DNA of 32,000 nt from Nonlabens ponticola. GTDB taxonomy: Bacteria > Bacteroidota > Bacteroidia > Flavobacteriales > Flavobacteriaceae. Below the pieces are notes generated by a model. The model was not told the origin of the DNA and ran no database searches. It saw only the letters and a list, made by a program, of their open reading frames with translations. A program made the position numbers and the translations under genes. Shown in pieces: positions 3,034 through 29,759 of this stretch. The number at the start of each line of letters is the position of its first letter. The stretch's first letter is position 1. The stretch spans positions 2,840,101 to 2,872,100 of the forward strand of contig NZ_CP034549.1 of NCBI RefSeq assembly GCF_003966335.1. The letters are read 5' to 3'.

Positions 3034-3828
3034 TTATCTAAATCTAAAGCCGATGCTGGCGTACTGTTGATCTACAGGTGAATCCTTAAAAATACTATTG
3101 AGACCATATTTTGCAAAAATTTGTAATGCGCCGTTACCAACGTAGGCACTAAGACCATAGACAAAATCTTCCATCTCATAATCATTGTAACGTCGCGTGG
3201 TGACGTCGCGCCCTTCATTCTCAAACTTGAGCAATTGGTTTGTCGCGGCATTGATACCTAAGTATCCACCCAATCCTATCGTCCAACTTTCAACATCATC
3301 GTACCTAGTAACACCGTTGTCATAGGTTATTTTATCCTGCTTACCGAATTCAAGATGCACCGGCGCAATGATGGTAAGCTGTTCAAATTTTGATTTATCA
3401 ACGTTGAATCCGACTGGTTGTAATCTAGTAACGTCACCGCTAGTCTCAAACTCTTTATTATCGTTAATGCGCAGCGTTTGCCATTGAAACGACAAACCGT
3501 AATTGAAACGTACGGTGTTTGCCTTGTTTACTTTAGTGCTGAACTCCAATCCAAGCTCCCATATCCCAGAACCCCAAAAGCGGTAGTCCTCGCCAATACC
3601 GTTGTCATCGCCTAATGCTTGATTCCAGCCAACAGCAAAAACACCATTGGTGACCGTTTTTACATCGCGGTCCTCTCGTGAGCTATCAAAAGCGTCTAGA
3701 AAGTCGCTAGGCACTTCTTGAGTGTCCTGATCGTCATCGTTATCATCCTGCGCGTAGGACAGTGTAAATGCAAGTAAGCAAATTGATGAGAGAAAGAATT
3801 TTTTCATAGGTTTTTGTTTTAATTTCAT
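3034..3828 (-). CDS. Outer-membrane beta-barrel protein (porin-like); paralog of the 3904-5055 product
   Basis: 264-aa ORF with a signal peptide (KKFFLSSICLLAFTLSYAQ) and an acidic N-terminal stretch. It has an alternating beta-strand pattern and ends in ...ASIGFRFR. The last ~190 aa align motif by motif with the neighbouring gene (PVHLEFG / PMHLEFG; GLGGYLG / GIGGYAG; VYGLSAYVG / VYGVDAYVG). Confidence 0.7.
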   Translation of the reverse strand: MKLKQKPMKKFFLSSICLLAFTLSYAQDDNDDDQDTQEVPSDFLDAFDSSREDRDVKTVTNGVFAVGWNQALGDDNGIGEDYRFWGSGIWELGLEFSTKVNKANTVRFNYGLSFQWQTLRINDNKEFETSGDVTRLQPVGFNVDKSKFEQLTIIAPVHLEFGKQDKITYDNGVTRYDDVESWTIGLGGYLGINAATNQLLKFENEGRDVTTRRYNDYEMEDFVYGLSAYVGNGALQIFAKYGLNSIFKDSPVDQQYASIGFRFR

Positions 3829-3903: not shown

Positions 3904-5055
3904 TTAGTCTGTCTGTAATCTAATACCAAAAGCCACGTACTGCCCATCAACAGATCCGGATTGAAATATGTCATTTAAGCCAAGCCTACCAAATAATGAC
4001 CATGAGTCAAACCCAACATATGCATCAACTCCATAGACCAGTACTTGATTGTCAAATGCATTAATTGTAGTCTGTTTGATATCTGCGCCTGCTAGATCAT
4101 ATTTATACTTAAGTCTGCTACTCAAATTGAAACCAGCATAACCACCTATACCAAATTTGAGCTGATCATAATTGTAATATCTCTCGCGACCATCCTCGTA
4201 GGTTTTTTTATAGCGTGGACCAAATTCCAAGTGCATAGGAAATACGAATTGATCTTGTCTGAACTTCGCTTTATCCGCGTTAAAAGTCAATCGCTCAATC
4301 TGGGTATTATCAGGATCATCAATCGTAAAAGCTCTATTTCCATTAAGCTCAGTTCCTTGTGTTTGGTATTCTACACCGTATCGCCAGCGTATCGTCTGAC
4401 TCTTATTCAATGCAGTGATCCAAGTTATACCTAGGGAAAAGTAGTTGTTGTTTCCATAACTGAAATCGTCAATTCCTAAGTCATTACCATCAATAAAGTT
4501 ATACCCAAAGCCTAAAGACAAGCCAGATGTAGTTTTGATTTGCTTTTTATATTTATTAGTGTTCTTACCTATTTCAAACTCCATTGCCGTGTTGTTCAAT
4601 AGCTTTACGCCATCACTGCCAAGGGAAGCATAATTCAATTCAGTAGATTCAAATTTTAACTTTGCTTCAATAAGCTTATTGTATGCGTCAATTTTATCTG
4701 CATAAGTCTGTGCGGTAAGCTCTTTATCTCTGCTTGCCATCGCGGCTGTGTAAGCATCATTTTGCTCCTGACGCTGATTTATCTTTTCTATTTTCTCGGC
4801 TAATTCAGTGCGCTGATTAGATTCGTAAAGACGTCTATCTTCCTTAAGTTCATCAATGCGTTCCAATCTTTTGGTTTCACTTCTCAAGAAAGCCTTTTCA
4901 GAATTATAATAAAACTTCGAAACTTTTCCATCTACGGTGTCGGTAACCACGTAATATTCACCTTCCTGAACTCCCGTTTTTAAATTCTGCGAACGGCTTA
5001 AAAGGATGCCAGCAAATGATAAAGTTAATGTGATAAGTAATTTTTGATTTTTCAT
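3904..5055 (-). CDS. Outer-membrane beta-barrel protein with an N-terminal coiled-coil-like extension
   Basis: 383-aa ORF with a signal peptide (LLITLTLSFAGILLSRSQ). Residues ~60-150 are a charged, heptad-like region (RLERIDELKEDRRLYESNQRTELAEKIEKINQRQEQ...). The C-terminal ~230 aa are homologous to the 3034-3828 product. Confidence 0.7.
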   Translation of the reverse strand: MKNQKLLITLTLSFAGILLSRSQNLKTGVQEGEYYVVTDTVDGKVSKFYYNSEKAFLRSETKRLERIDELKEDRRLYESNQRTELAEKIEKINQRQEQNDAYTAAMASRDKELTAQTYADKIDAYNKLIEAKLKFESTELNYASLGSDGVKLLNNTAMEFEIGKNTNKYKKQIKTTSGLSLGFGYNFIDGNDLGIDDFSYGNNNYFSLGITWITALNKSQTIRWRYGVEYQTQGTELNGNRAFTIDDPDNTQIERLTFNADKAKFRQDQFVFPMHLEFGPRYKKTYEDGRERYYNYDQLKFGIGGYAGFNLSSRLKYKYDLAGADIKQTTINAFDNQVLVYGVDAYVGFDSWSLFGRLGLNDIFQSGSVDGQYVAFGIRLQTD

Positions 5056-5132: not shown

Positions 5133-5891
5133 TTAATTTCTGCTATCGATAAGCGCTACCGCTTCACGTTTCAAAATTTTAAAGCCGTCCTCGACAATAT
5201 TTTGAAGCCTGTCCTGTCGTCTCGCTTCCAGATCCCATTCCGTTTCTCGCAGTAGTTGTTGAGGATTTATTGACGCGTTGGTGATCATGGTTTTCGTTGC
5301 CTTGCTTTGTAAGGCTTGATCTAATAATCTATTAGCTTCGTCCTTTGGTGAGAGTGCAACATCAGCTGCTTTAGAACTAACGATGTCATCTGCGGGTTCA
5401 TCCATTGTGGATGGCTCTTCAATGATGGCAATGGCTTCTATCGGTTCAGATTGCGTAGCAATTGAAGATTTGTATGATTGTGATTTCGATTTGTTTCTTT
5501 CTTTGACAGTGCTTGTGGATCGTTTGGTGTCTTTTTTTATTCGCTTGGGTTCTGCAACAACTATAGCTTCTTGTAGGAACGGCTTTCTTTTACTTGACTT
5601 AACTTCTTCCGCATCTGGTTCAGTTGTTATGACTGATTCGCTACTAACATCATTTTCCAATACAACTGTATTTTCTGGTGACGAGCTCATTTCATTATTT
5701 GAAGTAATCACTGGTACTGCAATCAATCCTAAAATCAATATGGCCGCTATCGCGCCTAGCCAATAAATCACCGGTTTTTCATTGGTGCTTTTCTGTTCTG
5801 CATCTAGCATTCCTGATAATCGATCCCAAGAGTCTGCGCTAGGCTGGATCTCACGGTTATCAAATTTCTTCTTCATATTCTCAAGCTTCAT
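5133..5891 (-). CDS. Putative membrane-anchored anti-sigma factor, assigned by position and topology only
   Basis: 252-aa ORF. Its ATG overlaps the sigma-factor stop by 11 nt (ATGAAGCTTGA), which indicates translational coupling. It has one TM helix (VIYWLGAIAAILILGLIAVPVI) after a ~45-aa cytoplasmic N-terminus. The S/T/E/K-rich region is extracytoplasmic. No HxxxCxxC zinc anti-sigma motif is visible. Confidence 0.45.
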   Translation of the reverse strand: MKLENMKKKFDNREIQPSADSWDRLSGMLDAEQKSTNEKPVIYWLGAIAAILILGLIAVPVITSNNEMSSSPENTVVLENDVSSESVITTEPDAEEVKSSKRKPFLQEAIVVAEPKRIKKDTKRSTSTVKERNKSKSQSYKSSIATQSEPIEAIAIIEEPSTMDEPADDIVSSKAADVALSPKDEANRLLDQALQSKATKTMITNASINPQQLLRETEWDLEARRQDRLQNIVEDGFKILKREAVALIDSRN

Positions 5892-6444
5892 AATGTTTCT
5901 TCTTTAATAGGGTCAATTGTTCTTGTAACATCAATCGCGCCTTGCGGTATTGACTTTTGCTGGTATTCTCACTTATGGATAGCATGATGGCAATCTCGCG
6001 ATGTTTTAAACCGTCTAGTGCAAACATTACAAAAACACTTTTATAACCATCTGGCAAGGTGTCGATGCATTGCTGGATTTGATCAAGTGGCACATCTTCA
6101 CTATCATCTTCAACCACATCTTCAAACTGATCGTCATCGATCTCACTACTCCATTTATAGGTTTGCTTTTTACGTAGGCAGTTAAGACATTCACGTATCA
6201 TGATGCGTCGCACCCAACCTTCAAAACTTCCTTCGTGGTTAAAAGTATCCAGCTTAGTAAACACCTTTAAAAAACCATTGAGCATGATTTCTTCTGCGCT
6301 CTCTATAGGTGAGATGTATTGGCGGCAAACACTCAGCATTTTACCAGCGTGCTTATCGTATAGTCGACGTTGCGACTTGCGATCACCCTTTGCGGCTCGC
6401 TCGATAAGTTTTTTCTCGTTAGTGTATAGCTGAATCACCTTCAC
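5881..6444 (-). CDS. ECF-type RNA polymerase sigma-70 family factor
   Basis: 187-aa ORF. The region 2-like segment is GDRKSQRRLYDKHAGKMLSVCRQYI...FLKVFTKLDTF. The region 4 HTH is GYKSVFVMFALDGLKHREIAIMLSISENTSKSQYRKARLMLQEQL. The start codon is GTG at 6442-6444. Confidence 0.9.
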   Translation of the reverse strand: MKVIQLYTNEKKLIERAAKGDRKSQRRLYDKHAGKMLSVCRQYISPIESAEEIMLNGFLKVFTKLDTFNHEGSFEGWVRRIMIRECLNCLRKKQTYKWSSEIDDDQFEDVVEDDSEDVPLDQIQQCIDTLPDGYKSVFVMFALDGLKHREIAIMLSISENTSKSQYRKARLMLQEQLTLLKKKHYEA

Positions 6445-13653: not shown

Positions 13654-15633
13654 CTACCTCTCTACAATTATAAACTCTGATCTTCTATTGAGTTGGTGCT
13701 GCTCTTCACTACACTTAACTCCATTAGAACACTCATTGATAAGTTGGTACTCGCCATAACCTTTGGAGGTTAATCGACTCGCATCAACACCTTTTGAGAT
13801 AAGGTAGTTCATGGTACTCATTGCGCGACGGCTGGATAATTTCTCATTGTAATCATCATTACCTCGACTGTCAGTATGTGACCTTATATCGATTTTCATG
13901 GTAGGATTATCCTCTAGGACGGCAAGAACTTTTTGTAGTTCAAGCTCTGCATCCTCACGTATGAATGAACGATCAAAGTCAAAATAAATAGGATTGAGAT
14001 TCAATAGTTTTGCAAGATCGTCACCTACTTTACCTGTAATCGTTGTAGGCTGTAGCGCTAAAGGAACATCAATATTGCTTGTTACTGTTGGAGTGTTTAC
14101 AAGCTCCTCTGCAGTGTTGTAAGCTCGTTTTTCACCTCGAACAAAATAAGTCTTATCACAAGCTAATTTAAAAGCAAATTTACCGTTGTCTCTGGTCCTA
14201 CGAGACGCCACGATATTATTATTGACATCAATCACGTTTATTACGGCGTTTTCTAAAGGTACTCCAGTTTGCTTATCGGTAATTGTGCCGGTAACGAACT
14301 GCTCACAAGTTTCACGCAAATCCTCTAATTGAATGAAGCGATAGATTTCATCATCATTACCGCCACCTATCCTATTAGAACTGAAATAGCCAGTGTCATT
14401 ACCTTCATCAATTATAAATGCAAAATCATCGTCAGTACTATTTGCAGGCTCGCCTATGTTTACTGGATTACTCAAACTGCCATCGTCATTAATTGTACTC
14501 ACAAAAATATCTAGACCACCTAGTCCTTGTAAACCATTACTGGCAAAGTACAGATTGCCGCTACGGCTGATGTAGGGATAGCTTTCACGGCCTTCTGTAT
14601 TAATTGGTGACATATTCTCTGGCTCGCCATAGCTACCGTCTTCATTAATAGCGACGCGCCATATGTCAGTTTCTTTAAATTTGCTTTCCATACCCATAGT
14701 TCCCAGCATATTGCTTGAGAAATAAAGGTATTTACCATCTGGTGTTAGTGCTGGATGTGATGTGGTGTAATCTTCATCAGAGAATGGTGTTCTTTCAGGT
14801 CTGGACCATTTACCATCTTTTTTAACTGATTTGAAAATCTGTAAACGATTGACATTTTCATCGTCGCGCTCGAGATCACCTTTCTGGTAATTATTCCTGG
14901 TGAAATACATGGTATTCAAATCTGCAGTAAAGGTTGGCGTGCTCTCATGTAGTATTGAGTTGATGCGCTTGTCAAACTTTTCTGGGTTTGATAGTTTACC
15001 TTCAGCATCTCTATCTGCGATGTATAGATCAAGAAAATAGCGCTCATTCCAAGAATGGGTTCTTTTGTAAAAAACTCCAGTATCACGGGCACTTGCAAAA
15101 ACGACTTTATCAGGACCATAATAAGCCGTCCCAAAATCTTGCTCGTCACTATTGACAGAAACTTTTTCTACCTCAAACCTACCTTTTTGAAAATCGATAA
15201 TAGTTAAAAAATTAGGCATATTGCGAGCCGCACTAAGCCTTGAATCCTTAAGACCTACTACATTGAATCCAGATAATATTTGATTTGCCTTATCGTATTG
15301 CTTATCGCTTTTAAGTGCCTGTGCATATCTAAAGAAATATACTGTAGGAATGCTTTTTTGATCTAGTTTAAATAGCTGATTATACCATTTTAAAGCATTA
15401 CTATAATCGTTATTGAAATAGTAAGAATCACCGAGATTTGAAAATATCTCAACACTCTTAAAACCACGATCTGCCATACGCTGATAGATGTCACGTGCCT
15501 CAATAAACGCGTACTTCTCTACCTTGCGCTCTGCTCGTGGTGAGTCTGCTTTTTGCGCCTGCGCAAAGGTCACTACTAGAAAAAACAGAATAACGGGAAC
15601 CCTAAGCAAGTTTTTCAAGTTGTGTTTTTTCAT
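13654..15633 (-). CDS. OmpA family protein with TPR, PD40/TolB-like beta-propeller, CarboxypepD_reg-like and C-terminal OmpA domains
   Basis: 659-aa ORF with a signal peptide. It has a TPR-like N-terminus and PD40-like repeats (YFSSNMLG..., YFASNGLQGLGGLDIF, GYFSSNRIGG). A transthyretin-like segment follows (GTITDKQTGVPLENAVINV). The OmpA domain is SHTDSRGNDDYNEKLSSRRA...NRRSEFIIV. Confidence 0.88.
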   Translation of the reverse strand: MKKHNLKNLLRVPVILFFLVVTFAQAQKADSPRAERKVEKYAFIEARDIYQRMADRGFKSVEIFSNLGDSYYFNNDYSNALKWYNQLFKLDQKSIPTVYFFRYAQALKSDKQYDKANQILSGFNVVGLKDSRLSAARNMPNFLTIIDFQKGRFEVEKVSVNSDEQDFGTAYYGPDKVVFASARDTGVFYKRTHSWNERYFLDLYIADRDAEGKLSNPEKFDKRINSILHESTPTFTADLNTMYFTRNNYQKGDLERDDENVNRLQIFKSVKKDGKWSRPERTPFSDEDYTTSHPALTPDGKYLYFSSNMLGTMGMESKFKETDIWRVAINEDGSYGEPENMSPINTEGRESYPYISRSGNLYFASNGLQGLGGLDIFVSTINDDGSLSNPVNIGEPANSTDDDFAFIIDEGNDTGYFSSNRIGGGNDDEIYRFIQLEDLRETCEQFVTGTITDKQTGVPLENAVINVIDVNNNIVASRRTRDNGKFAFKLACDKTYFVRGEKRAYNTAEELVNTPTVTSNIDVPLALQPTTITGKVGDDLAKLLNLNPIYFDFDRSFIREDAELELQKVLAVLEDNPTMKIDIRSHTDSRGNDDYNEKLSSRRAMSTMNYLISKGVDASRLTSKGYGEYQLINECSNGVKCSEEQHQLNRRSEFIIVER

Positions 15634-15635
15634 GA

Positions 15636-16598
15636 TTAAAAGAATCTAGGAGTCAATAGCTTATCGTAATCTCTAGTAAGTTCATACCTTAAGAATACCT
15701 CAAAACTACCGTCGTTGAATTGAGTGTTACCTAAATCTGTAGTTTCACGATCGTAAGCCAATCCTATTTGAAATTGATTACTTATCTGATACCCAAGTAA
15801 GCCACTTACCGCAGCATCCCATCTGTAAGCAGCTCCTAATGTAAGTCGCTCATTAATCAAAAAGTTTGCAGTTACATCGACTTGTAAAGGTGCTCCTGAG
15901 ACTGCCTTGATCATTGTGCTAGGCTTGAACATCAAATTGGGATTGATGTCAAATACATATCCTGATGTCAAATAATAATGAATACGTTCTCTTGCTACAA
16001 AGGATGCCGTATTGTTGTTATTGGACTCTTCAAAATGCTCATTGCGCAATAAATTGGGTGCACTCAAACCTGCATAAAACTTGTCGGTATGAAAGTAAAT
16101 ACCTGTACCAATATTAGGCGAAAGCTTGTTGTCGATGTTTTGCTCAAAAGCTGCATCATCTAAATCAAAACGCTGCAATTCATCAAAGTTTACGTCCAGG
16201 ACGTGCGCACCTAATTTGACCCCAAAGCTAAGCTTGCTATTGTAACCTGTATCAATGGTATAACTAACATCACCATTAAAGTAAGTCTCGCTGGTAGGTC
16301 CTAGCTTATCGTTGACAATAGAAAGTCCTAATCCTACTTTACCAAACCCAACTGGACTGTGTAAACTTAGACTTTGAGTTTCTGGAGCACCGTCGAGACC
16401 TACCCACTGACTTCTGTGCAACAGTATTGCACTGAACATACCTCTGTTTCCTGCGTATGCTGGATTTATAGACAAAGTGTTGTACATATACTGTGTGTAC
16501 TGTGCATCCTGTTGCGCTATTCCTTTAATAGAAAGAGAAAAGAGAAACACGGCTATCAAATATTTCATCGATTGTATTTTGTTATTAGTATATCTCAT
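15636..16598 (-). CDS. PorP/SprF family type IX secretion system membrane protein
   Basis: 320-aa ORF. The hallmark N-terminus is AQQDAQYTQYMYNTLSINPAYAGNRG, followed by a beta-barrel pattern. The start is more likely ATG 16568 (MKYLIAVFLF...). Its stop lies 2 nt from the start of the downstream OmpA-family gene. Confidence 0.9.
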   Translation of the reverse strand: MRYTNNKIQSMKYLIAVFLFSLSIKGIAQQDAQYTQYMYNTLSINPAYAGNRGMFSAILLHRSQWVGLDGAPETQSLSLHSPVGFGKVGLGLSIVNDKLGPTSETYFNGDVSYTIDTGYNSKLSFGVKLGAHVLDVNFDELQRFDLDDAAFEQNIDNKLSPNIGTGIYFHTDKFYAGLSAPNLLRNEHFEESNNNNTASFVARERIHYYLTSGYVFDINPNLMFKPSTMIKAVSGAPLQVDVTANFLINERLTLGAAYRWDAAVSGLLGYQISNQFQIGLAYDRETTDLGNTQFNDGSFEVFLRYELTRDYDKLLTPRFF

Positions 16599-16603
16599 TA
16601 TTT

Positions 16604-19600
16604 CTATCTCTGTATATAAATGTAACCTGCTACTGACTTGCGTTCACCGCTTTCATCATCCTGGTAATTGAGAACGTAGTAATAGGTTCCTACAGGTAAT
16701 TCTTCTCCTTGCTGGATTGTTGCTCTACCTTCAGATATTCCTCTAAATACATTACCGTTGACCCCATAGCTTTCGGTTTCATAGACTAGCACACCCCAAC
16801 GATTGAAAATTTGTAAATCATTAGTTGAGAAACAGTCTAGATTTTCAATGACTAAGAAGTCATTTCTAGAGTTACCATCTGGAGAAATTCCGTTGTAAAC
16901 TATTGGTTCACCGCAGACAACTTCTTCATCAAATTCTAAATAATCAAAGATTCCATCGCCATCAGTATCTCTCGTGTTTCCAGTGTTAGGATTTTGATCA
17001 TTATCTGGATCTGGACCTTCGTCGATAGTATCAAAAGCATCACCATCATCATTATCATCTAGATAATCAGGAATACCATCACCATCGGTATCTTGATCTA
17101 CTGGATTATCATCACCATCATAATCTTCAAATACTGTATTCACCGTATCTCCATCATCGTCAATATCGCGATAATCCACGTCCTCAGTACCGTCTAGATC
17201 TGGAAGCTCAGATGGATCACCATCTAATTCTAGACCATCTGGATCACCATATCCAGAAGTATCACCATCATAAGCATCATTAAGACCATCGTTGTCAATG
17301 TCTTGATCACTTGGTGAAACGTCTGCAATACCATCGTGATCAAAATCATGACCTTCTAACCTATCCAATACATTATCATTATCTGAATCAGAATCGATAT
17401 AATCTTGAAGATCGTCGCCATCAAAGTTGAATTCTTCGATTGGTGAGCCATTGGTATCATAAGCATCATCAACACCGTTATTATCTTCATCTTGACCTGA
17501 TGGACTTATATAGTCAAATGTATCTTGAGACTCTACATTATCTGTAATACCATCATTATCAGAGTCTTGATCAAGATAATCAGGCAGTAAATCTGTATCA
17601 GTTTCTCGTGGTGCTGTTGAAACACCGTTACCGTCGATACCATCATCTTCTACCGCATCAGGTATACCATTCACACCTTCTGGCCCGTCAACCATACCGT
17701 CGTTATCAGCATCAAGTGCAGAGTTTCCTGTCTCATTGACATCATAGATACCGTCATTATCGCTGTCAAGGTCTAAATGATTTGATATTCCATCACCATC
17801 AGTATCAAATTCTGGGTTTACTGCATTGTCATCGTCACCAACAGTTGGATCGTTATCATCGTCATCTAGGTATGCAGGTACGCCGTCACCGTCGTTGTCG
17901 ATATCAGGATTTGATCCTACTTCTACAATATCAGGAATACCATCATTATCGTCGTCTTCGTCAAATAGATTAGTATCGTCGGTAGCGTCAAGATAGTTAG
18001 GCGTACCGTCTCCATCAGTATCATCATTGGTTGGATCGCCGTCATTATCCACATCTTCACCTTGTTCAGGATCATTATCGTCACCACCACCTTCAAAAGT
18101 TAATAATCCATCATCATCATCATCCCTATCACGGAAATCTGGGTTGTCATTTGCTCCATCTCTATTAGGTAAATCGAATGGATTGTCAATGACTAATAAA
18201 CCGTTAGGGTCTTCAAAATCTCCCAATGATCCGTCATATGCGTCATCCAATCCGTCACCATCATTATCTACACCAGATGGATCTACATCCGCCACACCAT
18301 CTGCGTTGTAGTCACTACCCTCGATGGAGTCAGGCACATTATCATTATCAGAATCAAGATCTAGATAATCAGGAAGTTCGTCTCCACCATCATCATCATT
18401 ACCATTGTCAAAATCCTCATCTGTGTTGACTGGCTCAATAGGTGCACCATTAGTATCATAGGCATCGTCAACTCCGTTAGAATCAGAATCCATCCCTGAT
18501 GGTAAGATATAATCAGCTGATGATTGAGATTCAATGTTATCTGTAATTCCGTCGCCATCAGAGTCCTGATCCTTATAATTAGGGATGTCATCATCGTCGA
18601 GATCAGACTCAAGAGGATCATCGCCAACACCATTTCCATCAACTCCATCATCCTCGGCAGCATCAGGAATACCATTAACGCCTGCAGGACCGTCTACCAT
18701 ACCATCATTGTCTACATCTAGATCTGAATTACCAGTTTCTACCACATCATAAATTCCGTCGTCGTCTACATCTAGATCTAATTGGTTAGGTATACCATCG
18801 CCATCCAAGTCTAATGATGGATCAAACAAGCCATCTTCATTTCCTACAAAGAAGTCGTTATCATCATCATCAAGATAGCTGGGAACACCATCTCCATCGT
18901 TATCTATATCTGGATCAAAGCCATCTAGTTCTTCTATATCCGTGATACCGTCATTATCGTCATCCAAATCAATATTATCTGGAATAGAGTCATTATCTCT
19001 ATCTATAGACACGATTGTAGGATCATCTGGCTCTCCATCATTGTTTTCATCGAAGTCATTTGGATTGTTTGGATCATCAGACGTATCTGTAACATCAACA
19101 CCATTAACATCTTCTCCGATACCGATTAAGGAGTTGATTGCGCGGTTATTTCTAACGTCATCTTCGTCAATTGTTTGAGTCACGGTTGCTATTACGCTTT
19201 CGCCAGGAGCTATACTATTGAATGTATCAGGCATTATGCTACCCGCATCCGCATTATCGTCTGATATCACAACATCTGTAAGAGTGATATTTCCTGTGTT
19301 TGTTATTACAATGTCATATGTAATAACGTCACCAATATTTCTGAAGAATTGCTCACGAGCAGCCTTAGTGATGCTCATCGAACTTTTCTGTCCCAGGTCC
19401 GTATCCGTTGGATCGTCGCCCACGTTGCTGTCATCATCCGAGTCATCACTTACCGTGTTGCCATCCGGAGTCTCTCCGCTCACCACTGCCTGGTTGCGTA
19501 CAAAGCCGCGGTCGATGTCATCCTGAGTGATCGTATAGCTACCCGTAAAGGTCGTATCGTCAAAGGCTCCCGGTGACAGGCTAGCGATAGGACCGCCGCT

Positions 19601-21004
19601 TAGTGTACCGTTGGCGCCTTCCAATAGAACGTCCTCAAGGGTGATGTTCGTCAGCGTCGTGCTTCCGGTATTCGTTACCCTGAAGCTGTACGTGATCGTC
19701 TCGCCCACCTGTGCCGTACCGTTGCCGGCATCATCCGTATCACCGCTGCCGGCATCATCAAACACCGACGTCTTGATCACCGCGATGCTGCTGTCCTGTC
19801 CCAGGTCCGTATCCGTTGGATCGTCGCCTACGTTGCTGTCATCATCCGAGTCATCACTTACAGTGTTGCCATCCGGAGTCTCTCCGCTCACCACTGCCTG
19901 GTTGCGTACAAAGCCGCGGTCGATGTCATCCTGAGTGATCGTATAGCTACCCGTAAAGGTCGTATCGTCAAAGGCTCCCGGTGACAGGCTAGCGATAGGA
20001 CCGCCGCTTAGTGTACCGTTGGCGCCCTCCAATAGAACGTCCTCAAGGGTGATGTTCGTCAGCGTCGTGCTTCCGGTATTCGTTACCCTGAAGCTGTACG
20101 TGATCGTCTCGCCCACCTGTGCCGTACCGTTGCCGTCATCATCCGTATCACCGCTGCCGGCATCATCAAACACCGACGTCTTGATCACCGCGATGCTGCT
20201 GTCCTGTCCCAGGTCCGTATCCGTTGGATCGTCGCCCACGTTGCTGTCATCATCCGAGTCATCACTTACCGTGTTGCCATCCGGAGTCTCTCCGCTCACC
20301 ACTGCCTGGTTGCGTACAAAGCCGCGGTCGATGTCATCCTGAGTGATCGTATAGCTACCCGTAAAGGTCGTATCGTCAAAGGCTCCCGGTGACAGGCTAG
20401 CGATAGGACCGCCGCTTAGTGTACCGTTGGCGCCTTCCAATAGAACGTCCTCAAGGGTGATGTTCGTCAGCGTCGTGCTTCCGGTATTCGTTACCCTGAA
20501 GCTGTACGTGATCGTCTCGCCCACCTGTGCCGTACCGTTGCCGGCATCATCCGTATCACCGCTGCCGGCATCATCAAACACCGACGTCTTGATCACCGCG
20601 ATGCTGCTGTCCTGTCCCAGGTCCGTATCCGTTGGATCGTCGCCCACGTTGCTGTCATCATCCGAGTCATCACTTACAGTGTTGCCATCCGGAGTCTCTC
20701 CGCTCACCACTGCCTGGTTGCGTACAAAGCCGCGGTCGATGTCCTCCTGAGTGATCGTATAGCTACCCGTAAAGGTCGTATCGTCAAAGGCTCCCGGTGA
20801 CAGGCTAGCGATAGGACCGCCGCTTAGTGTACCGTTGGCGCCTTCCAATAGAACGTCCTCAAGGGTGATGTTCGTCAGCGTCGTGCTTCCGGTATTCGTT
20901 ACCCTGAAGCTGTACGTGATCGTCTCGCCCACCTGTGCCGTACCGTTGCCGTCATCATCCGTATCACCGCTGCCGGCGTCATCAAACACCGACGTCTTGA
21001 TCAC
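16604..21004 (-). CDS. Longest uninterrupted 3'-terminal frame of the adhesin gene (1466 codons); not an independent gene
   Basis: It comprises 4 array-A units, one AT-rich DUF11-like domain, the polyacidic TSP3-like region and the type-B CTD. The stop is TAG at 16604-16606. Confidence 0.85.
16607..16921 (-). other. T9SS type B C-terminal sorting domain (gliding-motility-associated CTD type)
   Basis: The last 105 aa are [28 protein letters not shown]...[13 protein letters not shown]...[12 protein letters not shown]...AGYIYIQR. This fits the pattern NgisPnGDg.ND.f.I....l.IfNRWG..Vf....lp.GtYyY. Confidence 0.85.
16922..19002 (-). repeat. Polyacidic thrombospondin-type-3-like calcium-binding repeat region, made of two diverged ~340-aa copies (16922-17956 and 17957-18964)
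   Basis: Dozens of DxDxDGxxDxxD-type motifs occur ([43 protein letters not shown]). The two halves align block for block. Confidence 0.8.
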
Positions 21005-24000
21005 CGCGATGCTGCTGTCCTGTCCCAGGTCCGTATCCGTTGGATCGTCGCCACGTTGCTGTCATCATCCGAGTCATCACTTACAGTGTTGCCATCCGGA
21101 GTCTCTCCGCTCACCACTGCCTGGTTGCGTACAAAGCCGCGGTCGATGTCATCCTGAGTGATCGTATAGCTACCCGTAAAGGTCGTATCGTCAAAGGCTC
21201 CGGTGACAGGCTAGCGATAGGACCGCCGCTTAGTGTACCGTTGGCGCCTTCCAATAGAACGTCCTCAAGGGTGATGTTCGTCAGCGTCGTGCTTCCGGTA
21301 TTCGTTACCCTGAAGCTGTACGTGATCGTCTCGCCCACCTGTGCCGTACCGTTGCCGTCATCATCCGTATCACCGCTGCCGGCATCATCAAACACCGACG
21401 TCTTGATCACCGCGATGCTGCTGTCCTGTCCAGGTCCGTATCCGTTGGATCGTCGCCCACGTTGCTGTCATCATCCGAGTCATCACTTACCGTGTTGCCA
21501 TCCGGAGTCTCACCACTGACCACTGCCTGGTTGCGTACAAAGCCGCGGTCGATGTCATCCTGAGTGATCGTATAGCTGCCCGTAAAGGTCGTATCGTCAA
21601 AGGCTCCCGGTGACAGGCTAGCGATAGGACGCCGCTTAGTGTACCGTTGGCGCCTTCCAATAGAACGTCCTCAAGGGTGATGTTCGTCAGCGTCGTGCTT
21701 CCGGTATTCGTTACCCTGAAGCTGTACGTGATCGTCTCACCCACCTGTGCCGTACCGTTGCGTCATCATCCGTATCACCGCTGCCGGCGTCATCAACACC
21801 GACGTCTTGATCACCGCGATGCTGCTGTCCTGTCCCAGGTCCGTATCCGTTGGATCGTCGCCACGTTGCTGTCATCATCCGAGTCATCACTTACAGTGTT
21901 GCCATCCGGAGTCTCTCCGCTCACCACTGCCTGGTTGCGTACAAAGCCGCGGTCGATGTCATCCTGAGTGATCGTATAGCTACCCGTAAAGGTCGTATCG
22001 TCAAAGGCTCCCGTGACAGGCTAGCGATAGGACCGCCGCTTAGTGTACCGTTGGCGCCTTCCAATAGAACGTCCTCAAGGGTGATGTTCGTCAGCGTCGT
22101 GCTTCCGGTATTCGTTACCCTGAAGCTGTACGTGATCGTCTCGCCCACCTGTGCCGTACCGTTGCCGGCATCATCCGTATCACCGCTGCCGGCATCATCA
22201 AACACCGACGTCTTGATCACCGCGATGCTGCTGTCCTGTCCCAGGTCCGTATCCGTTGGATCGTCGCCTACGTTGCTGTCATCATCCGAGTCATCACTTA
22301 CAGTGTTGCCATCCGGAGTCTCTCCGCTCACCACTGCCTGGTTGCGTACAAAGCCGCGGTCGATGTCCTCCTGAGTGATCGTATAGCTACCCGTAAAGGT
22401 CGTATCGTCAAAGGCTCCCGGTGACAGGCTAGCGATAGGACCGCCGCTTAGTGTACCGTTGGCGCCCTCCAATAGAACGTCCTCAAGGGTGATGTTCGTC
22501 AGCGTCGTGCTTCCGGTATTCGTTACCCTGAAGCTGTACGTGATCGTCTCACCCACCTGTGCCGTACCGTTGCCGTCATCATCCGTATCACCGCTGCCGG
22601 CGTCATCAAACACCGACGTCTTGATCACCGCGATGCTGCTGTCCTGTCCCAGGTCCGTATCCGTTGGATCGTCGCCCACGTTGCTGTCATCATCCGAGTC
22701 ATCACTTACCGTGTTGCCATCCGGAGTCTCTCCGCTCACCACTGCCTGGTTGCGTACAAAGCCGCGGTCGATGTCATCCTGAGTGATCGTATAGCTACCC
22801 GTAAAGGTCGTATCGTCAAAGGCTCCCGGTGACAGGCTAGCGATAGGACCGCCGCTTAGTGTACCGTTGGCGCCTTCCAATAGAACGTCCTCAAGGGTGA
22901 TGTTCGTCAGCGTCGTGCTTCCGGTATTCGTTACCCTGAAGCTGTACGTGATCGTCTCGCCCACCTGTGCCGTACCGTTGCCGTCATCATCCGTATCACC
23001 GCTGCCGGCATCATCAAACACCGACGTCTTGATCACCGCGATGCTGCTGTCCTGTCCCAGGTCCGTATCCGTTGGATCGTCGCCCACGTTGCTGTCATCA
23101 TCCGAGTCATCACTTACCGTGTTGCCATCCGGAGCTCTCCGCTCACCACTGCCTGGTTGCGTACAAAGCCGCGGTCGATGTCCTCCTGAGTGATCGTATA
23201 GCTACCCGTAAAGGTCGTATCGTCAAAGGCTCCCGGTGACAGGCTAGCGATAGGACCGCCTTAGTGTACCGTTGGCGCCTTCCAATAGAACGTCCTCAAG
23301 GGTGATGTTCGTCAGCGTCGTGCTTCCGGTATTCGTTACCCTGAAGCTGTACGTGATCGTCTCGCCACCTGTGCCGTACCGTTGCCGTCATCATCCGTAT
23401 CACCGCTGCCGGCGTCATCAAACACCGACGTCTTGATCACCGCGATGCTGCTGTCCTGTCCCAGTCCGTATCCGTTGGATCGTCGCCCACGTTGCTGTCA
23501 TCATCCGAGTCATCACTTACCGTGTGCCATCCGGAGTCTCACCACTGACCACTGCCTGGTTGCGTACAAAGCCGCGGTCGATGTCATCCTGAGTGATCGT
23601 ATAGCTGCCCGTAAAGGTCGTATCGTCAAAGGCTCCCGGTGACAGGCTAGCGATAGGACCGCCGCTTAGTGTACCGTTGGCGCCTTCCAATAGAACGTCC
23701 TCAAGGGTGATGTTCGTCAGCGTCGTGCTTCCGGTATTCGTTACCTGAAGCTGTACGTGATCGTCTCACCCACCTGTGCCGTACCGTTGCCGTCATCATC
23801 CGTATCACCGCTGCGGCGTCATCCACACCGACGTCTTGATCACCGCGATGCTGCTGTCCTGTCCCAGGTCCGTATCCGTTGGATCGTCGCCCACGTTGCT
23901 GTCATCATCCGAGTCATCACTTACAGTGTTGCCATCCGGAGTCTCTCCGCTCACCACTGCCTGGTTGCGTACAAAGCCGCGGTCGATGTCATCCTGAGTG

Positions 24001-25082
24001 ATCGTATAGCTACCCGTAAAGGTCGTATCGTCAAAGGCTCCCGGTGACAGGCTAGCGATAGGACCGCCGCTTAGTGTACCGTTGGCGCCTTCCAATAGAA
24101 CGTCCTCAAGGGTGATGTTCGTCAGCGTCGTGCTTCCGGTATTCGTTACCCTGAAGCTGTACGTGATCGTCTCGCCCACCTGTGCCGTACCGTTGCCGGC
24201 ATCATCCGTATCACCGCTGCCGGCATCATCAAACACCGACGTCTTGATCACCGCGATGCTGCTGTCCTGTCCCAGGTCCGTATCCGTTGGATCGTCGCCT
24301 ACGTTGCTGTCATCATCCGAGTCATCACTTACAGTGTTGCCATCCGGAGTCTCTCCGCTCACCACTGCCTGGTTGCGTACAAAGCCGCGGTCGATGTCAT
24401 CCTGAGTGATCGTATAGCTACCCGTAAAGGTCGTATCGTCAAAGGCTCCCGGTGACAGGCTAGCGATAGGACCGCCGCTTAGTGTACCGTTGGCGCCCTC
24501 CAATAGAACGTCCTCAAGGGTGATGTTCGTCAGCGTCGTGCTTCCGGTATTCGTTACCCTGAAGCTGTACGTGATCGTCTCGCCCACCTGTGCCGTACCG
24601 TTGCCGTCATCATCCGTATCACCGCTGCCGGCATCATCAAACACCGACGTCTTGATCACCGCGATGCTGCTGTCCTGTCCAGGTCCGTATCCGTTGGATC
24701 GTCGCCCACGTTGCTGTCATCATCCGAGTCATCACTTACCGTGTTGCCATCCGGAGTCTCTCCGCTCACCACTGCCTGGTTGCGTACAAAGCCGCGGTCG
24801 ATGTCATCCTGAGTGATCGTATAGCTGCCCGTAAAGGTCGTATCGTCAAAGGCTCCCGGTGACAGGCTGGCGATAGGACCGCCGCTTAGTGTACCGTTGG
24901 CGCCCTCCAATAGCACGTCCTCAAGGGTGATGTTCGTCAGCGTCGTGCTTCCGGTATTCGTTACCCTGAAGCTGTACGTGATCGTCTCGCCTACCTGTGC
25001 CGTACCGTTGCCGTCATCATCCGTATCTCCGCTGCCGGCGTCATCAAACACCGACGTCTTGATCACCGCGATGCTGCTGTCT
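19388..25082 (-). repeat. Tandem array A: 14 x 408 bp (136 aa) near-identical DUF11-like ('conserved repeat domain') units
   Basis: The phase markers lie at 19611, 20019, 20427 and 20835, exactly 408 bp apart. They continue at 21647, 22459, 22867, 24082, 24490 and 24897, with every shortfall accounted for by small deletions. The unit is [16 protein letters not shown](D/A)[68 protein letters not shown](D/E)[50 protein letters not shown]. Confidence 0.95.
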
Positions 25083-25904
25083 TCTAATAATAGAGTGATG
25101 GTTGGATCATCTGGCTCACCGTCTGCTTCTGTATCTACATCTGCATTGTTATCTGGATCGTCACTGATATCTTGTATAACAGCATCCGATGGGGAATCAG
25201 CCGAGACAGTAGCACTATTTTGATAGCGACCAGCGTCAATATCGTCTTGGGTTAAAATATAAGTTCCCGTAAATGTTGTGCTGTCAGAAGCTCCAGGCTC
25301 CAACTGGGCAATCGCCGTACCTGTCACTGTCGTTCCAAGGTCTGAAACTTGAAGATTTGATAATGTAGTGGTTCCTGTATTTGTAATGACAAATTTGATA
25401 TGAAATAATATCGCCGGCGTCGGCAACAGAATTACCATTGGAATCCTCATAAGTGTCAATTTTCAATAAAGTTACGGAGCTAGAAGGGTCGAATGATACA
25501 ACCGTAGGGTCATCTGGCTCACCGTCACCATTATTATCAATATTATCTGTGTTCAAAGGATCATCTGAATCATCCACCACTATGATACCATTAGGATCTG
25601 TGGCTTCTACGCTAGCTTGATTTATAAATGATAAATTATCAATATCTGATTGTTGAATAGTATAAAATGCTGAATACGAAGCATTGTCAGATTCTCCAGG
25701 AACTAGCACAGCAATCCCACTCCCATTGACAACTACTCCAGCAGTAAGATCTGAAACAGTGATACCTGTCAATGTAGTATTTCCAGTGTTAGTTATTCTA
25801 AACGAGTATAGAATGCGATCACCAGCATCAATTACTCCATTACCATTGAAGTCTGATGCGACTCCTTGTTTGGAGAGTTGAATTTCGGAGTTGGGATCAA
25901 GAAC
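25083..25904 (-). other. Two divergent, AT-rich DUF11-like domains separating the two arrays
   Basis: The fragments read ...VITNTGTTTLSNLQVSDL...YILTQDDIDAGRYQNSATV...[13 protein letters not shown] and ...TGITVSDLTAGVV...YTIQQSDIDNLSFINQASV...GEPDDPTVVSF. The frame changes once near 25400-25440. A hand-counted 60-nt sample was about 42% GC. Confidence 0.7.
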
Positions 25905-28900
25905 TGTCGTCGTGGTATCATCCTCCAGGTTGCTGTCGTCATCAATACGTCGCTCACATCGTCGCCGTCATCAGTCGTTCCCGTGGCAGTGGCCTGGTTG
26001 TTCACGAAGCTCGTCGATGTCTGCCTGCGTGAGCGTCAACGATCCCGTGATCGTTACGTACCCGGTGCCAGATCGCGATTGGGCTGCCCGTGATGCTACC
26101 GTTGGGTGCCACCAGTAATGGGTCGCTCACCGTGATGTTGTTGAGCGCCGTGTCTCCGGTATTGGTTCCGTAAAGTCATAGTCGATCGTCTCGCCTACCT
26201 GGGCGAAACCATCTCTATTGGCGTCGTTGAACGTACCTTCCTTGATGATCGCGATGCTGTTGTCCTGTGGAAGTGGCGTCGTCGTCGTATCATCCTCCAG
26301 GTTGCTGTCGTCATCGGATACGTCGCTCACATCGTCGCCGTCATCAGTCGTTCCAGTGGCAGTGGCCTGGTTGTTCACGAAGCCTCGGTCGATGTCTGCC
26401 TGCGTGAGCGTCAACGATCCCGTGATCGTTACACTAGCGCCTGGTGCCAGATCCGCGATTGGGCTGCCCGTGATGCTACCGTTGGGTGCCACCAGTAATG
26501 GGTCGCTCACCGTGATGTTGTTGAGCGCCGTGTCTCCGGTATTGGTGACCGTAAAGTCGTAGTCGATCGTCTCGCCTACCTGGGCAAAGCCATCTGCGTT
26601 GGCATCGTTGAACGTACCTTCCTTGATGATCGCGATGCTGTTGTCCTGTGGAAGTGGCGTCGTCGTCGTATCATCCTCCAGGTTGCTGTCGTCATCGGAT
26701 ACGTCGCTCACATCGTCGCCGTCATCAGTCGTTCCCGTGGCAGTGGCCTGGTTGTTCACGAAGCCTCGGTCGATGTCTGCCTGCGTGAGCGTCAACGATC
26801 CCGTGATCGTTACACTAGTACCCGGTGCCAGATCCGCGATTGGGCTGCCCGTGATGCTACCGTTGGGTGCCACCAGTAATGGGTCGCTCACCGTGATGTT
26901 GTTGAGCGCCGTGTCTCCGGTATTGGTGACCGTAAAGTCATAGTCGATCGTCTCGCCTACCTGGGCAAACCATCTCTATTTGGCGTCGTGAACGTACCTT
27001 CCTTGATGATCGCGATGCTGTTGTCCTGTGGAAGTGGCGTCGTCGTCGTATCATCCTCCAGGTTGCTGTCGTCATCGGATACGTCGCTCACATCGTCGCG
27101 CCGTCATCAGTCGTTCCAGTGGCAGTGGCCTGGTTGTTCACGAAGCCTCGGTCGATGTCCGCCTGCGTGAGCGTCAACGATCCCGTGATCGTTACACTAG
27201 TACCCGGTGCCAGATCCGCGATTGGGCTGCCCGTGATGCTACCGTTGGGTGCCACAGTAATGGGTCGCTCACCGTGATGTTGTTGAGCGCCGTGTCTCCG
27301 GTATTGGTTACCGTAAAGTCATAGTCGATCGTCTCGCCTACCTGGGCAAAGCCATCTGCGTTGGCATCGTTTGAACGTACCTTCCTTGATGATCGCGATG
27401 CTGTTGTCCTGTGGAAGTGGCGTCGTCGTCGTATCATCCTCCAGGTTGCTGTCGTCATCAGATACGTCGCTCACATCGTCGCCGTCATCCGTCGTTCCAG
27501 TGGCAGTGGCCTGGTTGTTCACGAAGCCTCGGTCGATGTCTGCCTGCGTGAGCGTCAACGATCCCGTGATCGTTACACTAGCGCCTGGTGCCAGATCCGC
27601 GATTGGGCTGCCCGTGATGCTACCGTTGGGTGCCACCAGTAATGGGTCGCTCACCGTGATGTTGTTGAGCGCCGTGTCTCCGGTATTGGTGACCGTAAAG
27701 TCGTAGTCGATCGTCTCGCCTACCTGGGCAAAGCCATCTGCGTTGGCATCGTTGAACGTACCTTCCTTGATGATCGCGATGCTGTTGTCCTGTGGAAGTG
27801 GCGTCGTCGTCGTATCATCCTCCAGGTTGCTGTCGTCATCAGATACGTCGCTCACATCGTCGCCGTCATCCGTCGTTCCCGTGGCAGTGGCCTGGTTGTT
27901 CACGAAGCCTCGGTCGATGTCTGCCTGCGTGAGCGTCAACGATCCCGTGATCGTTACACTAGTACCCGGTGCCAGATCCGCGATTGGGCTGCCCGTGATG
28001 CTACCGTTGGGTGCCACCAGTAATGGGTCGCTCACCGTGATGTTGTTGAGCGCCGTGTCTCCGGTATTGGTGACCGTAAAGTCGTAGTCGATCGTCTCGC
28101 CTACCTGGGCAAAACCATCTGCGTTTGGCATCGTTGAACGTACCTTCCTTGATGATCGCGATGCTGTTGTCCTGTGGAAGTGGCGTCGTCGTCGTATCAT
28201 CCTCCAGGTTGCTGTCGTCATCGGATACGTCGCTCACATCGTCGCCGTCATCAGTCGTTCCCGTGGCAGTGGCTGGTTGTTCACGAAGCCTCGGTCGATG
28301 TCTGCCTGCGTGAGCGTCAACGATCCCGTGATCGTTACACTAGCGCCTGGTGCCAGATCCGCGATTGGGCTGCCCGTGATGCTACCGTTGGGTGCCACCA
28401 GTAATGGGTCGCTCACCGTGATGTTGTTGAGTGCCGTGTCTCCGGTATTGGTGACCGTAAAGTCGTAGTCGATCGTCTCGCCTACCTGGGCAAAGCCATC
28501 TGCGTTGGCATCGTTGAACGTACCTTCCTTGATGATCGCGATGCTGTTGTCCTGTGGAAGTGGCGTCGTCGTCGTATCATCCTCCAGGTTGCTGTCGTCA
28601 TCAGATACGTCGCTCACATCGTCGCCGTCATCCGTCGTTCCCGTGGCAGTGGCCTGGTTGTTCACGAAGCCTCGGTCGATGTCTGCCTGCGTGAGCGTCA
28701 ACGATCCCGTGATCGTTACACTAGTACCCGGTGCCAGATCCGCGATTGGGCTGCCCGTGATGCTACCGTTGGTGCCACCAGTAATGGGTCGCTCACCGTG
28801 ATGTTGTTGAGCGCCGTGTCTCCGGTATTGGTGACCGTAAAGTCGTAGTCGATCGTCTCGCCTACCTGGGCAAAGCCATCTGCGTTGGCATCGTTGAACG

Positions 28901-29759
28901 TACCTTCCTTGATGATCGCGATGCTGTTGTCCTGTGGAAGTGGCGTCGTCGTCGTATCATCCTCCAGGTTGCTGTCGTCATCGATACGTCGCTCACATCG
29001 TCGCCGTCATCAGTCGTTCCCGTGGCAGTGGCCTGGTTGTTCACGAAGCCTCGGTCGATGTCTGCCTGCGTGAGCGTCAACGATCCCGTGATCGTTACAC
29101 TAGCGCCTGGTGCCAGATCCGCGATTGGGCTGCCCGTGATGCTACCGTTGGGTGCCACCAGTAATGGGTCGCTCACCGTGATGTTGTTGAGTGCCGTGTC
29201 TCCGGTATTGGTGACCGTAAAGTCGTAGTCGATCGTCTCGCCTACCTGGGCAAAGCCATCTGCGTTGGCATCGTTGAACGTACCTTCCTTGATGATCGCG
29301 ATGCTGTTGTCCTGTGGAAGTGGCGTCGTCGTCGTATCATCCTCCAGGTTGCTGTCGTCATCGGATACGTCGCTCACATCGTCGCCGTCATCAGTCGTTC
29401 CCGTGGCAGTGGCCTGGTTGTTCACGAAGCCTCGGTCGATGTCTGCCTGCGTGAGCGTCAACGATCCCGTGATCGTTACACTAGCGCCTGGTGCCAGATC
29501 CGCGATTGGGCTGCCCGTGATGCTACCGTTGGTGCCACCAGTAATGGGTCGCTCACCGTGATGTTGTTGAGCGCCGTGTCTCCGGTATTGGTGACCGTAA
29601 AGTCGTAGTCGATCGTCTCGCCTACCTGGGCAAAGCCATCTGCGTTGGCATCGTTGAACGTACCTTCCTTGATGATCGCGATGCTGTTGTCCTGTGGAAG
29701 TGGCGTCGTCGTCGTATCATCTCCAGGTTGCTGTCGTCATCAGATACGTCGCTCACATC
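25905..29759 (-). repeat. Tandem array B: about 10 x 381 bp (127 aa) near-identical DUF11-like units
   Basis: Phase markers lie at 26218, 26599, 27361, 27743, 28125, 28505, 28885, 29265 and 29645. Spacing is 381 bp, plus or minus the single-base indels listed in the findings. The unit is [68 protein letters not shown](A/T)[58 protein letters not shown]. Confidence 0.95.

Follow-up and report, generated by a model that had tools for sequence, protein, structure and literature searches.

The 32,000-nucleotide stretch of Nonlabens ponticola DNA analysed here (contig NZ_CP034549.1, positions 2,840,101 to 2,872,100; hereafter the window) carries on its minus strand a host gene of about 5,200 codons, with a stop codon at 16604, that is followed downstream by a porP/sprF-family gene and a porE-like gene. 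From the window end toward the stop codon, the domains of the encoded protein are arranged as an unassigned N-terminal region, one SdrD_B-like domain, a pair of single DUF7507 domains, a tandem array (array B), two more single DUF7507 domains, a second tandem array (array A), one further single DUF7507 domain, aspartate-rich repeats, and a CHU_C domain. Array A (19388..25081, minus strand) is the main subject of this report and consists of 14 tandem 408-bp units, each of which encodes one 136-aa DUF7507/DUF11 beta-sandwich domain together with an acidic linker. A preliminary description of this DNA had recognized the array and its high internal identity; the guanine-cytosine (GC) excess and the codon-usage anomaly of the array were absent from that account.

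Array A is real and lies inside one gene. Tandem Repeats Finder places it in a single run between 19388 and 25081, with a period of 408, 14.0 copies, 98% matches, and a score of 10954, and without a higher-order period; the 14 units of 408 bp first described are thereby recovered, and the count refers to the array as assembled and is an assembly result. When unit boundaries are fixed, only units 6, 7, 11, and 14 differ from 408 bp, with lengths of 402, 406, 399, and 407 bp (units are numbered from 19388 where deletions are concerned and in N-to-C order where haplotypes are concerned). The minus-strand translation of the consensus unit is 136 aa long and runs from DSSIAVIK to DTDLGQ. Both array ends fall at domain linkers, as had been proposed, with ...TITLLLE meeting DSSIAVIK at 25082/25081 and ...DTDLGQ meeting KSSMSITK at 19388/19387, and the start and end of the array are in phase with the domain borders of the flanking single-copy domains.

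The units of array A vary at 15 substitution columns, or 16 if one doubtful column beside a deletion is counted, and the initial figure of about six variable positions was too low. All four variants originally given as examples are present (column 68, GAC/GCC, D/A; column 276, GAT/GAG, D/E; column 375, GTG/GTA; column 177, GAA/GAG). The high identity of the units also survives the alignment of all 14, since two units differ on average by 4.8 substitutions per 408 nt (1.17%). The GC content of the array is 57%, versus roughly 40% in its surroundings. On the plus strand, between 19218 and 25223, open reading frames (ORFs) of 102-174 aa recur about once per unit, most of them 107-108 aa long with TTG starts; a GC-rich repeat probably gives rise to them incidentally on its antisense strand.

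Each unit had been described as a complete DUF11-type domain, and three family profiles agree, all of them exceeding their cut-offs: PF24346 (DUF7507) with 85.3 bits (cut-off 27; E-value 3.5e-24), PF01345 (DUF11) with 29.9 bits (cut-off 24.6; E-value 7.8e-07), and TIGR01451 with 37.2 (cut-off 24). The unit has a predicted immunoglobulin (Ig)-like beta-sandwich fold. In the AlphaFold2 model, a single array A unit forms an all-beta sandwich (predicted local distance difference test score 86.7, predicted template modelling score 0.79) in which the acidic loop, residues 15-20, is of low confidence. The best Foldseek matches of this model in the PDB are generic Ig-like beta-sandwiches (template modelling score about 0.5-0.6), and a sequence search of the PDB with the unit gave no meaningful match.

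Array B (25906..29759, minus strand) contains, by Tandem Repeats Finder, 10.1 tandem 381-bp units that each encode a 127-aa DUF7507 domain. Its unit scores 90.5 bits against PF24346 and is a different DUF7507 domain from unit A, with 61% aa identity between the two; like array A, array B has a GC content of 57%. Single-copy DUF7507 domains adjoin the arrays on all sides, and all are on the minus strand. Two lie upstream of array B (29760..30400) and contain several homopolymer frameshifts; the second of these (about 30075-29815) can be aligned from end to end with the DNA of unit B but is AT-rich at third positions. Two others separate the arrays (25082..25905), and one follows directly after array A (19001..19387, beginning KSSMSITK).

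The remaining parts of the host gene are also on the minus strand. The N-terminal non-repeat part (30401..32000) comprises two unassigned stretches, one of them the head region, and an SdrD_B-like domain. Pfam gives no match for the N-terminal stretch of some 230 aa, which is kept at 59% in a metagenomic homologue (L081, 3063-5768) and might form a ligand-binding head. The aspartate-rich region of about 700 aa (16900..19000) has, by eye only, the look of thrombospondin-type-3 calcium-binding repeats, and a family match was not obtained for it. Within this region lies an old duplication that spans about 1 kb (e.g., copies at 17419-17584 and 18418-18583, with spacings of 999-1005 nt also in families D5-D7), and its copies are roughly 70-76% identical and use native low-GC codons. 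This duplication is a diverged repeat of the host gene without GC enrichment. The gene closes with a CHU_C domain, a probable type-B sorting domain of type IX secretion systems (T9SS), and the stop codon (16604..16899; PF13585 with 78.4 bits, cut-off 27).

The two arrays differ sharply from the rest of the gene in codon usage. GC content at third codon positions (GC3) is 0.66 in unit A and 0.72 in unit B (the value for array B as a whole is likewise 0.72), versus 0.21-0.32 in every non-array segment of the host gene (e.g., 0.24 in the aspartate-rich region) and 0.33-0.44 in neighbouring genes. The single-copy DUF7507 domains of the same gene have a GC3 of 0.26-0.31; the two domains between the arrays, at 0.26-0.28, use native low-GC codons, and the domain after array A has a value of 0.31. 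The preferred codons of unit A include ACG for threonine (15/21), AGC for serine (10/14), and ATC for isoleucine (7/7), as well as CTG, GTG, and GAG, and the GC difference between array and surroundings is located at synonymous sites. Between the single-copy domain upstream of array B and unit B, third positions show 43 weak-to-strong differences (A or T to G or C; W>S) versus 5 strong-to-weak ones (S>W), and first and second positions are nearly symmetric. In the comparisons with three other flanking single-copy domains, the ratios of W>S to S>W at third positions are 38 to 14, 19 to 5, and 29 to 5. The domains that are GC-rich are thus exactly those that belong to an array, and this holds for two separate arrays split by 0.8 kb of homologous domains of native composition. 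The GC-rich synonymous codons look like the product of a process linked to arrays and not like a trait of the domain family.

Recombination among the units of array A is evident from the distribution of their variants. Identical substitution haplotypes are shared by units 4 and 9, 3 and 8, 2 and 13, and 12 and 14, which stand 2, 5, and 11 units apart. Unit 7 is a mosaic that joins variants found separately in other units, and in the four-gamete test all four allele combinations occur in 14 of the 55 informative site pairs. Neighbouring units are not more alike than distant ones; similarity does not decay with distance and instead peaks at a spacing of five units, the probable trace of a five-unit (2,040-bp) duplication within the array. 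Shared and mosaic haplotypes, the presence of all four gametes, and the lack of distance decay point to unequal crossover and gene conversion among units. The preliminary description had left a choice between very recent amplification and continuous concerted evolution; the haplotypes fit concerted evolution, and a single recent burst of amplification without later exchange does not account for them. These two processes probably hold the units at about 98.8% identity, with selection preserving the protein. With a unit of 3 x 136 nt, such events would also change the length of the predicted stalk in frame.

A candidate cause of the GC3 shift, with less than even odds and only slightly ahead of an import of GC-rich modules, is GC-biased gene conversion, or another recombination-linked GC-ward bias, acting in place among the units. 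Evidence of recombination and a raised GC3 relative to single-copy homologues, two of the features expected of GC-biased gene conversion, are found together in array A. Under such a bias, the domains of a homogenizing array would be driven to a GC3 of about 0.66-0.72 from the native value of about 0.26, and single-copy homologues a few hundred bases off would not. A third expected feature is a W>S bias in the spread of new variants. Synonymous variants among the units comprise 10 W>S and 13 S>W changes and imply an equilibrium GC3 of 0.63, close to the present GC3 and far from host values (p 0.0005-0.055 versus host composition); this estimate is suggestive only, because majority-rule polarization pulls it by construction toward the present GC3. 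The edge units conflict with each other, as the last unit of array B drifts AT-ward (6 S>W, 2 W>S) and the first unit of array A drifts in the opposite direction (1 and 5, respectively).

Similar contrasts occur in related loci, here defined as the 80 syntenic loci (L001-L080) that were found with the PorP protein. Among 45 arrays located within ORFs at these loci, 35 have a GC3 above that of the non-array part of their own ORF, with a mean excess of +0.087. A contrast with neighbouring genes (here the porP gene and downstream ORFs) is seen in Flagellimonas olearia (L048, 5497-7161; 0.79 in the array versus 0.44-0.52), another Flagellimonas (L051, 1-1331; 0.75 versus 0.41-0.48), and a Flavobacteriaceae metagenome-assembled genome (MAG; L080, 3663-7459; 0.72-0.75 versus 0.50). 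It is also seen at L059 (0.61 versus 0.44), L065 (0.55-0.61 versus 0.38-0.40), and L043 (0.53 versus 0.35). At L048, L051, and L080, the high-GC3 loci with translated units, the repeat units are unrelated to DUF7507, which favours a process bound up with arrays as such over one family or one transfer event. In the Aquimarina and Nonlabens loci, the excess is small or absent (e.g., L024, L003). The strength of a GC-ward bias would accordingly have to vary by lineage, being strong here and in Flagellimonas-like genomes and weak in Aquimarina and Nonlabens. No correlation was found across the related loci between GC3 excess and array identity (Spearman 0.14, p 0.37). A cross-locus estimate of equilibrium GC3 was dropped as evidence, as it is biased toward present composition when polarization is unreliable.

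A foreign origin of the GC-rich units is rather unlikely, but only a little less likely than biased conversion. DUF7507 modules from a GC-richer organism would have been recombined into the gene and then amplified, and the identity of the units would reflect their recent arrival. The codon usage of the units does look like what a genome of about 57-60% GC would have. At third positions, units A and B are closer to each other than to the flanking single-copy domains, and first and second codon positions lean toward GC as well. However, no donor was found among 5.8 billion proteins and the 80 syntenic loci, where the best relatives of the unit are 50-59% identical and belong to low-GC Flavobacteriaceae. 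As two GC-rich arrays surround 0.8 kb of homologous domains of native composition, import needs two events, each exactly in domain phase, and the same GC contrast recurs in other genera with unrelated repeat units. The synonymous variants among units are also not strongly AT-ward, as those of a relaxing foreign sequence should be, although this test is weak. The probability that remains beyond biased conversion and import belongs to other causes.

It is improbable that the array is real but that its length and unit order are assembly constructs, the result of a collapsed, expanded, or mis-ordered repeat. The locally high rate of indel errors described below marks this as a region that is hard to sequence, and 55 of the 80 related loci are on contigs that stop, a few kb upstream of porP at most, in the adhesin gene or close to it. 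Arrays of this kind may thus commonly interrupt assemblies made from short reads and be too rarely represented in databases. Against a construct, about nine distinct haplotypes follow one another in a non-periodic order, so that a unique path through the array exists; the junctions are seamless and in domain phase; and comparable arrays are present in long-read assemblies of relatives. One of these, in an Aquimarina sp. MAG (L024, OZ246021.1, 3321-8863), is a DUF7507-type array of 426 bp x 13.0 with 100% identity, located upstream of a porP homologue. In structure, this array from a long-read assembly closely parallels array A.

In the given sequence, the array is not in frame, contrary to its first description. 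Global alignment of array A with 14 perfect consensus copies reveals 17 deletion events totalling 18 nt, and 0 insertions; the deletions sit in units 5, 6, 7, 10, 11, and 14, and 15 of the 17 are in homopolymers of 2-3 nt. Array B contains 15 deletions and 4 insertions. Indels are also present in unique low-GC parts of the gene (AAAA to AAA near 29960, AA to AAA near 25400, GG to G near 30370), and the N-terminal part has three frame switches (about 31806, 31463, and 30780) and a fourth at its lower edge near 30370. Altogether, about 45 frame-breaking indels, nearly all of 1 nt, fall within 21004-32000; the longest reading frame left intact extends only from 21004 to the stop at 16604. None is visible across the other 21 kb of the window, neither in the last 4.4 kb of the host gene nor in the remaining genes.

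These indels are very probably sequencing or assembly errors in homopolymer length rather than biology. They are almost all 1-nt changes, mostly in short homopolymers, and the same homopolymer is hit in different array A units (columns 34, 375, and 402), a recurrence that fits context-specific calling error. Natural mutation produces far more substitutions than indels, and in array A private indels are about as many as private substitutions. Of the 32 variable columns in arrays A and B, 28 are third codon positions (p = 3e-10), and the units have therefore evolved as coding sequence under protein-level selection. Furthermore, the homologue L081, at 59% identity, has one uninterrupted ORF of 902 aa that is collinear across four of the frame switches, and in-frame stop substitutions are absent from the correct-frame segments of the host gene. 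For a genuine decaying pseudogene, with some 45 real frameshifts and an array that is a relic, speak the many breaks of the frame within the arrays and beyond them, the role of homopolymer slippage as the chief natural source of frameshifts, and the restriction of the indel cluster to one dispensable-looking gene. Such a pseudogene is nevertheless very improbable in view of the parity of private indels and substitutions, the third-position bias, the lack of in-frame stops, and the repetition of the same deletion at the same homopolymer across units. Because of the dozens of homopolymer indels, automatic annotation cuts the host gene into fragments (85- and 101-aa pieces). The practical lesson is that homopolymer indels lead to fragmented annotation of such genes.

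The genes downstream of the host gene indicate where its product is likely to reside. The porP/sprF-family gene (15636..16598, minus strand; PF11751 with an E-value of 3.5e-92, TIGR03519 with 280 bits and a cut-off of 90.55) encodes an outer-membrane protein and begins 6 nt downstream of the host gene stop codon. The porE-like gene (13654..15633, minus strand) encodes TPR, PD40 beta-propeller, CarboxypepD_reg, and OmpA domains, all four found by Pfam, and scores below the cut-offs of two family profiles, NF052230 (321 bits, cut-off 600) and NF053607 (386 bits, cut-off 620); the four-domain architecture of PorE is described by Gorasia et al. (2022; PMC9143113). Type-B cargo binds PorP-like proteins, and PorE bridges PorP to peptidoglycan (PMC9143113). 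In F. johnsoniae, six porP-like genes adjoin porE-like genes, and cargo encoded beside porP-porE pairs is proposed to be wall-anchored and non-mobile (PMC9143113). Because the host protein has a probable type-B C-terminal sorting domain, it would be exported by the T9SS and held at the surface by the PorP/SprF-like and PorE-like proteins. From this sorting domain and the anchor genes, we infer a surface location. Array A, array B, and the five single-copy DUF7507 domains together are likely to form the stalk of a giant surface protein; the stalk would be rod-shaped, and the protein would bind a ligand.

Several points weigh against this interpretation of the gene and its array. The type-B sorting domain scores 25.2 bits with the NCBIfam profile TIGR04131, under the cut-off of 35. 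Neither the gene start nor the signal peptide falls within the window: residue 66 of L081 aligns to window position 31997, which puts the start about 65 codons past the window end and the length of the protein at about 5,200 aa, and it is the N-terminus of L081 that is a typical signal peptide, beginning MIKNSTPKTVSFLRLLLLSLMFFTTAQYANAQ. No close relative for a comparison of lengths was found in the collections scanned (the best unit match has 50% aa identity and the best porP match, from Dokdonia, 67%), and a metagenome scan gave no contig of the same species but only the homologue at 59%, so that variation in array length is putative. The errors set in within array A, at 21004, and reach unique low-GC sequence, which a simple failure of repeat polishing does not explain. 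Finally, both the reading of the indels as errors and the copy number of 14 are provisional.

Elsewhere in the window, two adjacent minus-strand genes (3034-3828 and 3904-5055) have C-terminal halves that are alike by eye (...FNVDKSKFEQL...PVHLEFG and ...FNADKAKFRQD...PMHLEFG) and may encode paralogous outer-membrane proteins. At 5133-6444, also on the minus strand, an ORF of 187 aa with the look, by eye only, of an extracytoplasmic function-type sigma factor overlaps a downstream ORF of 252 aa by 11 nt; the latter has one hydrophobic segment, and the two may be a sigma/anti-sigma pair. No transfer RNA genes and no Rfam families were found in the window.

Biased gene conversion in bacteria is still debated. 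Lassalle et al. reportedly proposed it in 2015 for bacteria at the genome scale, with reference to recombination between genomes rather than to intragenic repeats. The arrays resemble that proposal in the raised GC3 of recombining versus non-recombining homologous sequence of the same gene and differ from it in the very large size of the shift (about 0.26 to 0.66-0.72). Full-text literature searches gave no earlier reports of GC-enriched codons or biased conversion in intragenic arrays of bacterial surface proteins, which is not proof of absence. If conversion is indeed the cause, tandem arrays in T9SS surface-protein genes would be a natural, internally controlled readout of bacterial biased gene conversion. 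Intragenic arrays allow a test that keeps expression, strand, gene, and protein family fixed.

Fibrillar adhesins with DUF11/DUF7507 stalks (Monzon et al. 2021; PMC8286594) are similarly long multidomain surface proteins with a repetitive beta-sandwich stalk and a distinct N-terminal region that may bind a ligand. In contrast to those adhesins, no adhesive head domain can be assigned by Pfam in the host protein. The locus also resembles those of SprB-SprF in F. johnsoniae and PG1035-PorP-PorE in P. gingivalis (Gorasia et al. 2022; PMC9143113), with a very large repetitive protein that has a CHU_C domain, probably of type B, and is followed downstream by porP/sprF and then by a porE-like gene. 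As opposed to a gliding adhesin, the porE-like partner here would suggest a non-mobile wall-anchored protein, on the proposal made in PMC9143113.

Periscope Proteins are surface proteins whose stalk consists of tandem near-identical folded domains and differs in length between strains (Whelan et al. 2021; PMC8201768). Adjacent domains usually share under 50% identity (PMC8201768), and array A, an array of complete folded domains whose neighbours have about 99% DNA identity, breaks this rule as Periscope Proteins do. Other likenesses are that the unit length is a multiple of 3, that the protein is predicted to be at the surface, and that there is evidence of intragenic recombination. By its repeat criterion, array A would match the Periscope Protein concept, which has strain-to-strain length variation as part of its definition. 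The Periscope set was drawn from clinical genomes of the NCTC culture collection, and Bacteroidetes, DUF11, and GC content each have 0 mentions (PMC8201768). Unlike Periscope Proteins, the host protein is a predicted T9SS type-B cargo and has two different arrays separated by diverged domains. Array A is an array of a known kind and would add a flavobacterial T9SS example to the variable-length stalk proteins. A tandem array in a giant surface protein is ordinary and well understood, and the codon-usage contrast is the part of this gene that deserves follow-up.

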